Assembly: GCA_963768055.1 (NCBI GenBank)
Contig: CAVYGN010000002.1
Coordinates: forward strand, 960,001 to 1,024,000
From: an uncultured Spirochaetota bacterium
GTDB taxonomy: Bacteria > Spirochaetota > Brevinematia > Brevinematales > JAOACQ01
Direction: 5' to 3'
DNA length: 64,000 nucleotides
The translations under genes were made by a program, and so were the position numbers. This document shows positions 41,271 through 45,342 of the stretch, one piece after another (positions within the stretch are counted from its first letter, which is position 1; the number at the start of each line of letters is the position of its first letter). The notes under the pieces were generated by a model. That model saw only the letters and a program-made list of their open reading frames with translations, did no database searches and was not told the origin of the DNA.

Positions 41271-41770
41271 ATGAAAATAAAACGGCAGGTATATTCCTGG
41301 CATTAAGCTTCCTCCTGGCCGGCATAAATTATTCCTTTCCCGATTCAACAAATAAAAGTTTTATGAGCCTTGTCACTCCTGACGACATTGATAAAGAAAG
41401 GGGTATTCGGGGATCGGTTGAAACGGAAAGATTCTTTAAAAAAATAAACGGGGCAAGCCTGAACTTCACAAGGGAGGACGGGGGACAGCTTTTGAGCGTT
41501 GTAATTCAGATAGTAAACCCGGAGGATTTGAGGGAGGAAGAGAAAACCAGGGATTTTCAGGACCTATACTACGGCCCCGTTAAAGATCTGGGGGATAAAG
41601 CCTACGAGGGGCCGGCAAAGGGCGACAGGTACATTCTGTCATTTCTCAAGGGTTCATACTGGATAACCTTGTCGTCTTATTTAACGATACCCAGCTTAAA
41701 ACCTATCTTCGACCAGAATGATCTAAGAAAACTCGCGAATATCATGATCTCCAGGATATCCGCAGAATAA
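41271..41770 (+). pseudogene. Exported hypothetical protein with a 1-nt frameshift near the start (or a sequencing error)
   Basis: ATG 41271 after AAAGGGGG is out of frame by one base with the signal-peptide-like TAGIFLALSFLLAG, which continues into the 41363 ORF. Confidence 0.55.
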
Positions 41771-41797: not shown

Positions 41798-41846
41798 AAA
41801 AAACAGGCGGCATTCGCGGGAGGGTAATCGCATTACCGCCTGTTTT
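41798..41846. terminator. Intrinsic terminator (best on minus strand, probably bidirectional)
   Basis: Minus strand AAAACAGGCGGTA..TGCCGCCTG-TTTTTT. Confidence 0.8.
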
Positions 41847-42026
41847 GTTAGCACAAAATTCTGATGAAGAGTACTTGCGGATTAATTAGTTTCTGATTAG
41901 ATAATTAATCCATCTTAAGAATAAATGCAGTCCCCGGAAAGAGTCAACTTCCCTTTCCAAGGACTTGAGACCCTGAGCTTAAACTCCTATGAAAAGAATC
42001 GATTTTCTGATGTACTACACATGTAG
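41798..42026 (-). ncRNA. Candidate novel small RNA (~230 nt)
   Basis: Own sigma70 promoter, three hairpins (two with G-U pairs valid only on the minus strand), U6 terminator, no credible ORF; ends inferred. Confidence 0.6.
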
Positions 42027-42061
42027 TATATAAATATACTACAACTGTAGTAATAAGTCAA
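42013..42061 (-). promoter_or_regulatory. sigma70 promoter overlapped by two BlaI/MecI/CopY-type operator palindromes
   Basis: Minus strand TTGACT (42061-42056), 17 bp, TATATT (42038-42033); TACTACACATGTAGTA (42013-42028) and TACTACAACTGTAGTA (42037-42052). Confidence 0.75.
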
Positions 42062-42218
42062 GGGTTTTTGAAAAAATATTTTTATTGGGTTTTTTCGGCT
42101 GAACTATGAACCGGCCGGCCATGCTTTGACAAACTTTTGTCTGGCCGATTCCCCCGGCGATATATGGATTTCAAATGTTCAGGTAAAAGAGGTTATGGAT
42201 TAAATCTTATGCGTCCTT

Positions 42219-42797: not shown

Positions 42798-44291
42798 CTA
42801 TTGATTATAATAATCCCTCTTGATTTTTTCAAATTCGTCTTTTCCGCATGCAAGGGCCGCGGCAGCGGGAGCGGTTTTTTTTACGGTTTCAACCATTTCG
42901 GATGCTATTTTCCGTATATCCCACTGCGCGTAAGCGTCCATGCGCAACCTCGCGATATGATAGATTTCCCGTAAATTGACATTTACAAGTATCCTTCGCC
43001 TGTGGGCGTTAGTAAGGATGTAGTCCGAGGCCATGCCGTTTTCAGTCTTTAATTTTTCATAAGTATTTTCCGTTTCTGCAATGATATTATTAAATAAGCC
43101 GGCCATTCCGATCTCTTCGATCGATGGGGGTAATGTGACACCGAGCGAAGTCTCATAGGGCTGCTTGAGTATAGTCATCATCCGGTGCCTTTTCATCTGT
43201 GCAAAGGCGCTTGAACTAAGGATAATTTCAAACAGGAAATTCACATTTTCGAATTCCCTGTAAAGAGCGTCGTGCTCGCCCAGGTCTTTAAATATCTCTT
43301 TAAAAAAAAGAGTCCGCCCGTTTTCATTCATATTTTCCGCGGCCGACAGGCATTCCATGAAAGATCTCGCCGATGACGAATGAAGAAGGCTTGCTATGAT
43401 TTTTATGTCGGGTTCGGGCGTTTGTTCAAGAAGGGTCACGTTCCTGCCTGTTTTCGACTCTTTTCCGTTAAGATATTTTTTTGCCAGTAATTTAAGGTTT
43501 TCCCTGCCCTGTTTCAATATGCCGTCGGAAACGTCTCTGCCCGTTTGTTTTTTAAAACTTTCCCGGTCGGTCAATATAATAAGGGAGGGCACTACGGTCT
43601 TAGCCTTTTCGTAAAGTTTTAACGACAGGTCCCGGACTTCACTGAGAGGGTGGTATTTAAGTTTCCTGATAATATTTTCTAGGTTCCTGGCGTTAACGGA
43701 AAATCCGAGCTGGCATTCGGTGGCAAGAGACATGACATAACGGGCGTCTTCCTTGGCCCGCCCCTCTATTATGTTCGCTCCGGATTTCGTGGCTGTCATT
43801 TCAGGATGGGCGGCTTTCTGCGCTTCATGGAGAGCAGGGAAGAGTTTCATGTAAGCATCTATCTGTTTACAATAAGCGGAAGAGAAGAGCTCTTTATCTT
43901 CATCATTAAACTCTGCGGGTATTACCGTATCTCCCTCAAGGGTTATATATCGCTGTGATTTTTCCGTATACGAACTCAAACGTGATTCTTCAAGGGCTTC
44001 GACAGCGAGCCTCGATAAGCCGGTAATATCGAAATTCAGGCAGGCATGTTCGGCAACAGAGTGGTGCCCCATTTTAAATATAATGTTTTCGTTAGATTTC
44101 CTCGCTTTATCAAGAGCGTCCCTAGCCGCCGCGCGCAGTTCGCCGACAGGGCGTTCGTCCCTGCTGATTCTCGCATAGGCTGCGGAAAGCGTCTCCGGAG
44201 TAATGTTGTCCCTGCCGTCCCAACCTCTTTCTTTGAGGGATTCCAGGACTACTGCATCTACGTTAAATCCGGCAAGTTCGATTTTAAGCAT
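42798..44291 (-). CDS. thyX: FAD-dependent thymidylate synthase, tandem-domain type
   Basis: AAYARISR, GHHSVAEH, SYTEKSQRY, EDARY, NARNLE; second repeat with KRHR, NLRE, AQWDIR. Confidence 0.92.
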   Translation of the reverse strand: MLKIELAGFNVDAVVLESLKERGWDGRDNITPETLSAAYARISRDERPVGELRAAARDALDKARKSNENIIFKMGHHSVAEHACLNFDITGLSRLAVEALEESRLSSYTEKSQRYITLEGDTVIPAEFNDEDKELFSSAYCKQIDAYMKLFPALHEAQKAAHPEMTATKSGANIIEGRAKEDARYVMSLATECQLGFSVNARNLENIIRKLKYHPLSEVRDLSLKLYEKAKTVVPSLIILTDRESFKKQTGRDVSDGILKQGRENLKLLAKKYLNGKESKTGRNVTLLEQTPEPDIKIIASLLHSSSARSFMECLSAAENMNENGRTLFFKEIFKDLGEHDALYREFENVNFLFEIILSSSAFAQMKRHRMMTILKQPYETSLGVTLPPSIEEIGMAGLFNNIIAETENTYEKLKTENGMASDYILTNAHRRRILVNVNLREIYHIARLRMDAYAQWDIRKIASEMVETVKKTAPAAAALACGKDEFEKIKRDYYNQ

Positions 44292-44313: not shown

Positions 44314-45342
44314 CTAGTCTAACACTCCGATTTCCAGGGGAGGCCTTTCTATCAGTTCGTACTTCACCCCGGCTTCCTTGAAAAGCTCTTCGAAAGTTTT
44401 ATCGGGATAATAAGAACAGGCAATGAATTTCCTGATCTTTGAATTCACGATCATTTTAGCACAGATTATGCAGGGGGAGTGAGTGCAGTAAATAGTTGCG
44501 CCTTCAGTGGTTATTCCATTTAAGGCGGCATGTATAATGGCGTTCTGCTCGGCATGGACTGCGCGGCAGATCTCGTGCTGCATGCCCGATTTGATTCCAA
44601 GCTGGTCCCTGAGACAGCCGAGTTCAATGCAGTCTTTAATTCCGGAAGGGGCCCCGTTATAACCGGAACTGACTATATGATTATTATTTACTATGACAGC
44701 GCCTACATGGTGCCTGATGCAGGTGGAGCGTTCCGCTATGAGGTAGGCCATCTTTATAAAATATTCGTCCCAGGACGGCCTGATGTAAGGTTTGTAATTA
44801 AGTTCGGCAAGGATTGCGTCCAGTTTTTTATACATGGACCTCAAGCTTCCGGAATTATCGATTTTATAATCGGCAAGCTCCAGACAGCGGTTAAGCTGCT
44901 GGGCCTTATCATCCGAGGAGTTTTCTCTTTCCTCTTTACGGATAAATTCCTCAAGGGTCTCCCCGTCACCGACCCTTCCCCTCTTAATAGACCTTTCGAA
45001 CCTGTTATGTATGTCGGCCGTTATACCGATGAGTTTGAAAGATTTAAGATTGCTTCTTAAAACTTCGATTTCATATGGGTTTCTTATACTGTCGACAATC
45101 GCCTGCGGGAGGTTTTTAATCTTTGTTATGACCCTTTTAGCCAGGGTCGCCGGGCCTTCGCTTTCCCTCAAGTCATTGCCTATATCGATAAGACTGTCGC
45201 GGTTTGATTCCAGACCCTGCCTTACAGCTTCTTCCCTGATAATGTCGGAAAGAGAAAAAGCGATGAATTTTTTCTTTTCCACGAGGTATTTTATAGCTTC
45301 GCCCTTTCCGGCGGCGTTCGTCCCTGTAAAACCTAGAAACAT
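44314..45342 (-). CDS. dCMP deaminase (ComEB-like) fused to an N-terminal P-loop kinase-like domain
   Basis: GTNAAGKG P-loop, DSIRNP.E; then RPSWDEYF, RSTC, GYNG, HAEQNA, SPCIIC. Confidence 0.9.
   Translation of the reverse strand: MFLGFTGTNAAGKGEAIKYLVEKKKFIAFSLSDIIREEAVRQGLESNRDSLIDIGNDLRESEGPATLAKRVITKIKNLPQAIVDSIRNPYEIEVLRSNLKSFKLIGITADIHNRFERSIKRGRVGDGETLEEFIRKEERENSSDDKAQQLNRCLELADYKIDNSGSLRSMYKKLDAILAELNYKPYIRPSWDEYFIKMAYLIAERSTCIRHHVGAVIVNNNHIVSSGYNGAPSGIKDCIELGCLRDQLGIKSGMQHEICRAVHAEQNAIIHAALNGITTEGATIYCTHSPCIICAKMIVNSKIRKFIACSYYPDKTFEELFKEAGVKYELIERPPLEIGVLD

Follow-up and report, generated by a model that had tools for sequence, protein, structure and literature searches.

A predicted BlaI-controlled small RNA and its candidate place in an outer-membrane stress regulon of uncultured Spirochaetota

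What does a BlaI-type repressor control when no protein gene follows its operators? This question is raised by a locus on the minus strand of a 64,000-nucleotide (nt) stretch of DNA from an uncultured Spirochaetota bacterium (contig CAVYGN010000002.1, positions 960,001 to 1,024,000). The whole stretch is referred to as the window, and its own numbering is used unless a contig is named. Between positions 41798 and 42061, the original prediction had placed a sigma-70 promoter with twin BlaI/CopY-type operators, three hairpins, and a terminator, and had proposed an orphan small RNA (sRNA) induced by cell-wall or metal stress. In the follow-up described here, the source genome (G000; 3.69 Mb, two contigs) was compared with those of four further species of the same genus (G001 to G004). 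The locus is best read as encoding a trans-acting RNA of about 230 nt which would serve as the post-transcriptional branch of a regulon for outer-membrane stress governed by BlaI and a sensor-less, BlaR1-like M56 membrane protease, and a probability of about 0.6 is given to this reading. It is supported at the sequence level by the elements themselves, their conservation, the operators common to several promoters, covariation, and complementarity.

All elements of the unit lie on the minus strand. The promoter is found where it had been predicted, with a TTGACT -35 hexamer (42056..42061) separated by a 17-nt spacer from a TATATT -10 hexamer (42033..42038), and it scores 10/12 in a promoter scan of that strand. 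Two perfect 16-bp palindromes, both TACTACA-NN-TGTAGTA, are placed on it as proposed, 24 bp apart from centre to centre. Operator 1, TACTACAGTTGTAGTA (42037..42052), fills the spacer and overlaps the start of the -10 hexamer; operator 2, TACTACATGTGTAGTA (42013..42028), covers the predicted transcription start near 42027. In the RNA, operator 2 would form a 5' terminal hairpin, which is helix 1 of the predicted structure and whose six pairs are all invariant. Within the window, ACTACANNTGTAGT with at most one mismatch occurs twice, compared to a mean of 0.00 in shuffled sequence, and none of 100 shuffles reached two. Across the whole G000 genome a 14-mer pattern with at most one mismatch is not enriched (6 sites vs 8 for a reversed control pattern), whereas the exact 16-mer TACTAC-N4-GTAGTA is found at 6 sites vs 1 for the control. 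Operator enrichment is thus visible only with the exact 16-mer.

Upstream of the -35 hexamer, which is invariant in the alignment of four species (G000 to G003), an A/T-rich tract (42062..42085) contains AAAAATATTTT, likewise invariant in 4/4 aligned species. This tract is probably an UP-like element typical of the lineage. Near-identical A/T tracts with a -35 hexamer (AAAAATTTTTTCAAAAAACCCTTGAC-like) were observed throughout the family at strong promoters of unrelated genes, where they come without the operator (L012, L013, L016, L017). Weak BLAST matches in other genera, at these same loci, were rejected as ordinary promoters in which only the A/T tract and the -35 hexamer are present and the operators are absent. 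This combination produces spurious BLAST matches to the sRNA promoter.

The predicted non-coding RNA (41798..42027) is about 230 nt long, with its start (~42027) taken from the -10 hexamer and its end from the terminator; it is defined by promoter, terminator, structure, and the lack of a conserved open reading frame (ORF). Hairpin 1 (41930..41964) is a 14-bp stem followed by a T-rich tract, and 6 of its 14 pairs change on both sides and stay paired. Hairpin 2 (41879..41911) is A/U-rich and variable, with 82.5% of cells paired, and is largely deleted in G001. Hairpin 3 (41804..41846) is the terminator stem-loop, with its stem at 41842-41804, directly followed by a T6 tail (41798..41803), and its loop ATTACCCTCC at 41828-41819 contains an anti-Shine-Dalgarno CCUCC. 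Every one of these elements was confirmed at its predicted position. The stem of hairpin 3 and the loop core ACCCTCCC are identical in the four close species, with a single loop position varying between A and T; in the divergent G004 copy, which was read separately, the outer stem and the loop ATACCCTCCC are retained and the inner stem is changed. The CCCUCCC carried by this loop belongs to the best-conserved and most accessible part of the RNA (unpaired probability 0.75-0.88 in predicted ensembles). Hairpin 1 was also flagged as terminator-like, and the T-runs after it are clearest in G001 and G002, so that an internal terminator yielding a short isoform of ~100 nt is possible.

Folding of both strands favours the minus strand (-72.7 kcal/mol, z = -5.3) over the plus strand (-61.0 kcal/mol, z = -3.25), and the G-U pairs, which the original prediction had noted as agreeing with the promoter direction, fit the minus strand together with the covariation. 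RNAalifold predicted six helices from the four-species alignment, with 95% of cells paired. Eight pairs were found to be changed on both sides, six of them in hairpin 1, compared to 2.2 in shuffled alignments, and none of 500 shuffles reached eight. As a control, sliding the 3' partner by 1-3 columns left only 0-3 two-sided changes. With four sequences, and a structure derived from those same sequences, the covariation is suggestive of a structured RNA, not proof of it. No ATG ORF follows the AGGAG, as had been claimed, and the only sense ORFs of at least 8 codons are an 11-codon ATG ORF upstream of the AGGAG and ORFs starting with TTG or GTG. No ORF conserved across all five species was found in the unit. 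A comparison of the whole window to Rfam 15 gave no match at gathering score and seven below it (E 0.41-8.3), the best of which (E 0.41) reached 17.8 bits against a cut-off of 50 bits.

Further genomic comparison showed that the unit is present in 5/5 species of the genus. Full-length homologues with 73-80% identity are found in three same-genus genomes. The G004 copy (read at L011) is longer, at 316 nt, and divergent, but promoter, twin operators, seed, and terminator loop are all retained in it. The seven remaining genomes of the family gave no match to the unit. When 151 Spirochaetota genomes were scanned with a covariance model of the 3' module, two genus members were recovered and nothing convincing in the other 149, where one match reached 30 bits (E 0.006). 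A metagenome scan with the terminator hairpin pattern recovered three loci, all near-identical to the G001 and G002 copies and hence of no additional diversity. The flanking genes vary among species, and in G002 the convergent gene is missing and the terminator is still unchanged; the unit therefore stands alone and is neither a leader nor a shared terminator. A protein gene between promoter and terminator in relatives would have spoken against an sRNA, and none is present in the five species. The idea of an independent non-coding unit of ~230 nt has thus gained comparative support.

The description of the RNA as an orphan was not borne out. A scan of the G000 genome for the dyad returned seven sites, of which two are those of the sRNA promoter (42013-42052). 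One lies inside TTGACA-17-TATAAT upstream of a 128-aa Penicillinase_R gene (blaI), which is followed by an M56 protease gene; one lies inside TTGACA-17-TAAAAT upstream of bamA, which has five POTRA repeats; and two lie upstream of htrA, encoding Trypsin_2 and PDZ domains. The seventh is a weak dyad (11/14) at C2:1764619. Placement of a dyad inside the 17-nt spacer is common to the sRNA, blaI, bamA, and htrA promoters. In all five species, sigma-70 promoter dyads are found at blaI-blaR1 (one site), bamA (one), htrA (two), and the sRNA (two), making this a conserved regulon. Each of the five genomes holds 6-8 copies of the exact 16-mer vs 0-1 for the control, and the 30 other genomes of the order hold 0-2.

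The repressor, which had been expected to be encoded elsewhere, was located by the proposed genome scan, and the promoter of its gene contains this dyad as well. BlaI (128 aa) matches PF03965 Penicillinase_R at 86 bits. The M56 protease ORF (367 aa) starts 8 nt after blaI, matches PF05569 Peptidase_M56 at 73 bits, and contains a HEIGH motif. Since the G000 genome holds a single strong BlaI and a single M56 protein above cut-off, it is reasonable to assign the dyads to BlaI as their putative repressor. A penicillin-binding sensor domain is absent from the protease, in which only M56 and M48 regions match and which ends at residue 367. BlaI has no cysteine and therefore lacks a copper site of the CXC type found in CopY, for which a C-terminal CXC metal-binding motif is described (PMC7253601); against the CopY_TcrY model TIGR02698 it scores 51 bits, with a cut-off of 122 bits. 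With neither a penicillin-binding domain in the protease nor a cysteine in the repressor, beta-lactam and copper are poor candidates for the inducing signal, and induction by cell-wall (beta-lactam) or metal stress, as first suggested, is unlikely. The content of the regulon (bamA, htrA) points instead to stress in outer-membrane protein (OMP) biogenesis.

Some members of the regulon are species-specific. In G001, an aspartyl-protease-PDZ lipoprotein gene has twin dyads (L034, G001:C9), and in G004 a 252-aa secreted protein without a known family has one (L045, G004:C6); G004 holds two further dyad sites besides the latter. At L036 (~1490-1600; G004:C2), just 3' of blaR1, a dyad TACTACAGAGGTAGTA was observed inside a promoter-like TTGAAA...TATAAA, and about 35 nt past it a GC-rich hairpin of 11 bp, whose loop is TCCTACCTCCTA and which ends in a T8 tail; the element contains no ORF. 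It may be a second BlaI-controlled RNA, of ~70 nt, with an anti-Shine-Dalgarno terminator loop. It is seen in G004 only, and the same gap of G000 contains no dyad. In G000, a 338-aa signal-peptide protein of no known family is encoded 290 nt downstream of blaR1 (C1, 1279337-1280353, minus strand), and its 311-aa G004 counterpart comes after the L036 dyad and hairpin. The protein may belong to the stress module.

A candidate target was obtained by scoring conserved RNA segments for duplex energy against the start regions of 3351 genes, predicted in G000 as longest non-overlapping ORFs, a crude approach that covers 91% of the genome. For the invariant linker, the two best duplexes reached -27.9 and -27.0 kcal/mol (mean -12.6, sd 2.9). 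Both genes encode signal-peptide proteins, and in each the pairing spans the start codon. One encodes a 394-aa protein with a Pfam match to the Alginate_exp barrel. The other encodes a 516-aa protein (orthologues of ~520 aa) with a C-terminus ending in ...IKF, and is preceded by a consensus promoter with an A/T upstream tract. The seed CTCTTCATCAGAA lies at 41859..41871, and its CTCTTCATCA is invariant in 5/5 species. As RNA, these 13 nt (41871-41859) read CUCUUCAUCAGAA and are perfectly complementary to UUCUGAUGAAGAG in the mRNA of the 516-aa protein, covering -5 to +8 around the start codon.

The G002 orthologue of this gene has an unassembled 5' end, which leaves four species in which the target can be assessed (G000, G001, G003, G004), and the exact 13-mer is found at the start of the orthologue in all four. 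Across the five genomes there are eight exact non-self occurrences: these four, one at the 394-aa protein gene of G000, one at a 148-aa signal-peptide protein gene of G002, and two away from gene starts. Both non-self exact 13-mers of G000 sit on start codons, vs 1 of 14 one-mismatch sites. The predicted duplexes with the target reach -27.2, -32.1, -32.2, and -42.2 kcal/mol in the four species. In G004, the most divergent, 17 perfect base pairs continue into the anti-Shine-Dalgarno stretch, and a matched change is seen: the mRNA has GAGA (AGA for AGG at codon 3) and the RNA UCUC, where the others have GAGG and CCUC. The computed features are those of a trans-acting sRNA, with its own promoter, a Rho-independent terminator, no conserved ORF, and a conserved seed for a start region.

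Complementarity to start regions is also present, with partial conservation, in two 5' modules, CATCAGAAAATC and GATTCTTTTCAT (41989..42012). From the first, CATCAGAAAATC, the segment CAUCAGAAAAUC near the 5' end complements positions -9..+3 of the 516-aa protein mRNA in G000. This module is degraded in G003 (three mismatches), and G001 and G002 have lost the anti-AUG part of the 5' modules. The second, GATTCTTTTCAT, complements ATGAAAAGAAT(C) gene starts. Duplex searches with two other segments were set aside. The top matches of the terminator-loop segment needed stem nucleotides and were discarded as uninformative, and a 54-nt 5' segment gave long, loop-ridden duplexes with no clear outlier.

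Several observations weigh against the proposed targeting and have to be set beside these matches. The 516-aa protein has no Pfam or NCBIfam family. Its AlphaFold model, built on a 9-sequence alignment, is all-beta after an initial signal helix, with long strands, and reaches a pLDDT of 66. Every one of the Foldseek PDB matches listed is an outer-membrane protein, and TonB-dependent-transporter barrels make up nearly the whole list, at a TM of ~0.3. The model thus suggests an outer-membrane beta-barrel-like protein as a fold class only, at these low values. The 394-aa Alginate_exp-like protein was rejected as a second target, with its match absent from the G001, G003, and G004 orthologues and thus specific to G000. 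The start region GGAGGAUUUUCUGAUGAAGA of the 516-aa protein gene is also conserved in genera without the sRNA, so that the RNA is not what keeps it conserved. Exported proteins frequently begin with AUG-AAG-AG, which raises the rate of chance matches, and one-mismatch versions of the 13-mer occur 17 times in G000 vs 3 for the control. Shuffle tests of k-mers gave moderate results for k=12 (10 genes vs 2.8, with 1.6% of 500 shuffles as high) and k=13 (4 genes vs 0.74, with 2% of shuffles as high), and were not significant for k=10 and 11. Accessibility of the seed is partial, with unpaired probabilities of 0.22-0.78 in predicted ensembles. Finally, no Hfq was found with PF17209, other chaperones not having been searched for.

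From these parts a mechanism can be proposed. At rest, judging by the position of the operators over the spacer/-10 and the +1, BlaI dimers on both would block a strong sigma-70 promoter. Envelope stress would lead the M56 protease to remove BlaI, by analogy with BlaR1/BlaI and PetP/PetR. Upon loss of BlaI, the RNA would rise together with BlaI/M56, the barrel insertase BamA, and the periplasmic protease-chaperone HtrA. The CUCUUCAUCAGAA stretch of the RNA would then pair with positions -5 to +8, and thus over the start codon, in the mRNA of the abundant-looking barrel-like protein of ~520 aa, and the C-rich terminator loop may assist by masking the Shine-Dalgarno sequence. Exclusion of ribosomes would result in less new barrel substrate while folding capacity goes up. 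We infer that the unit is transcribed, that BlaI binds its operators, that proteolysis causes induction, that the signal is envelope stress, and that the target is repressed. A bolder version, doubtful at present, would make the sensor-less BlaI/M56 pair, not an ECF sigma factor, the master sensor of OMP stress. It would then be an independently arisen, full functional analogue of sigma-E/RseA/DegS-RseP with a porin-silencing RNA of its own. That RNA would use three pairing devices at once (the seed over the start codon, a second 5' anti-start copy, and the anti-Shine-Dalgarno terminator loop), and by way of AUG-AAR-AGR it would recognise the codons with which signal peptides begin, damping a whole class of exported proteins.

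The RNA could be real and controlled by BlaI and still have its main job elsewhere than in repression of the 516-aa protein. It could act broadly on many exported-protein mRNAs, either by its C-rich anti-Shine-Dalgarno loop or by the anti-AUGAAAAGAAU module at its 5' end, or it could bind or titrate a protein. Such a role is considerably less probable, although it accounts for the terminator loop being the best-conserved part of the RNA and predicted to be unpaired, and regulatory roles of sRNA terminator loops are reported (PMC11979758). The 5' module, moreover, perfectly complements (at least 11 nt) the starts of nine further ATGAAAAGAAT-type genes, but G001 and G002 do not preserve its anti-AUG part. 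With 5 nt, a CCUCC match confers no specificity; far more specific is the seed, which matches 13-17 nt of one orthologous mRNA in 4/4 species. Several GGA motifs in the RNA speak for such a role, and their position mainly in stems rather than loops speaks against it.

That the locus has no RNA function at all is improbable. It would then be the promoter and leader of a lost gene, or a pair of operators that titrates BlaI, with hairpins that are the terminators of its neighbours. Hairpin 1 with its T-rich tract does resemble an attenuator or terminator, and hairpin 3 could serve the convergent gene at 41363-41770, its plus-strand form also being followed by T's. However, G002 keeps both terminator and loop without that gene, the space between promoter and terminator is free of protein genes in every species, and the pairing of hairpin 1 has been maintained through two-sided changes. 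Conservation is also higher in the seed and the terminator loop than in the promoter-distal flanks, a pattern that speaks for selection acting on the transcript. Least probable of all, by a small step, is a unit which encodes a small protein or has a dual function. The candidate is a 24-codon TTG ORF (41960-41886) that starts within hairpin 1 and has the AGGAG upstream. The peptide start MEREVDSF is common to G000, G001, and G002, with an ATG in both relatives, but the frame in G003 gives an unrelated 10-aa peptide, the hairpin is replaced in G004, and the peptide length varies from 10 aa to >55 aa. The AGGAG, 26 nt away from the TTG, varies among species (G002 and G001 read GAAGAG or GAAGAT), and the substitutions keep base pairs, not codons. 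A trans-acting RNA within the BlaI/M56 regulon is thus the preferred reading.

Envelope responses that combine repair proteins with porin-silencing sRNAs are textbook knowledge in enterobacteria; bamA and degP belong to the sigma-E regulon, and VrrA (Vibrio) and CpxQ are further comparable sRNAs. In E. coli and Salmonella, sigma-E is described as inducing repair proteins together with the porin-repressing sRNAs MicA, RybB, and MicL (PMC4102768). The likeness lies in an envelope regulator that drives both repair factors and an OMP-blocking RNA; here bamA, htrA, and the RNA share one operator, and the seed is predicted to lie on the start codon of an abundant-looking barrel protein. In contrast, the RNA described here has no sequence or structure relationship to those sRNAs and no Rfam match. 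Control would be by removal of a repressor, where in enterobacteria a sigma factor is released. The host is a spirochaete in which no Hfq was found (PF17209), and a second contact through the terminator loop is possible.

The regulator itself resembles BlaI/BlaR1 and MecI/MecR1 of Staphylococcus aureus and Bacillus licheniformis in its winged-helix Penicillinase_R repressor, in TACA-NN-TGTA dyads of which two are present on strongly controlled promoters, and in a putatively autoregulated repressor-protease operon with its own dyad, the M56 gene adjoining the repressor gene. Unlike in those systems, the protease is a 367-aa protein with M56 only and no penicillin-binding sensor, and bamA, htrA, and an RNA would be controlled instead of beta-lactamase or PBP2a, in a diderm host. 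Another parallel is PetR/PetP of Synechocystis sp. PCC 6803, in which a BlaR-type membrane protease is described as setting the level of a BlaI/CopY-family factor (bioRxiv 10.1101/2020.07.31.226407). It shares with the present pair both kinds of protein, a diderm host, and a role unrelated to antibiotics; however, PetRP is described as answering copper and controlling four protein genes, whereas outer-membrane biogenesis and quality control together with an RNA are concerned here. The CopY/CopR operator is given as 16 bases built on KACANNTGTM (PMC7253601), a core which the present dyad shares, and two operators per promoter are frequent there too. The outermost operator positions differ from RNYKACANNTGTMRNY, and the present repressor lacks the CXC copper/zinc site along with any cysteine.

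Apart from the sRNA locus, two genes of the window have unusual domain arrangements. A 497-aa ThyX is encoded at 42798-44291 (minus strand), with two matched Thy1 stretches and about twice the usual length, and looks like a tandem-domain flavin-dependent thymidylate synthase. At 44314-45342 (minus strand), a 342-aa ORF has a P-loop kinase-like N-terminus (GTNAAGKGE) and a dCMP-deaminase-like C-terminus (HAEQNA...PCxxC); read by eye from the translation, it appears to be a kinase-like/deaminase-like fusion.

No paper on a BlaI-family repressor controlling a small RNA, or on a BlaI/bamA/htrA regulon, was found in open-access literature text. The claim that no such arrangement had been described stands for the RNA, and does not stand for sensor-less BlaI/M56 switches, of which PetR/PetP is a described example (bioRxiv 10.1101/2020.07.31.226407). 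Such switches are a known kind, as are envelope-stress sRNAs that silence porins. What is new is their combination, with a BlaI-family repressor gating a non-coding RNA inside a bamA/htrA regulon in a spirochaete lineage, together with an RNA that matches no described family and a predicted target in the mRNA of a barrel-like protein of ~520 aa. The case is purely computational yet unusually complete, including promoter, operator, regulator, regulon, structure, and conserved target. To our knowledge, envelope responses of this type have hardly been explored in spirochaetes or in lineages without cultured members. The locus would give one of the many sensor-less BlaI/M56 pairs a function, with regulator, RNA, and target together making up a candidate triplet. 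If the proposed reading holds, a logic like that of sigma-E would be built on another chassis, a protease-controlled repressor from an antibiotic-sensor family without the antibiotic sensor, offering a concrete and testable case of convergent circuit design.

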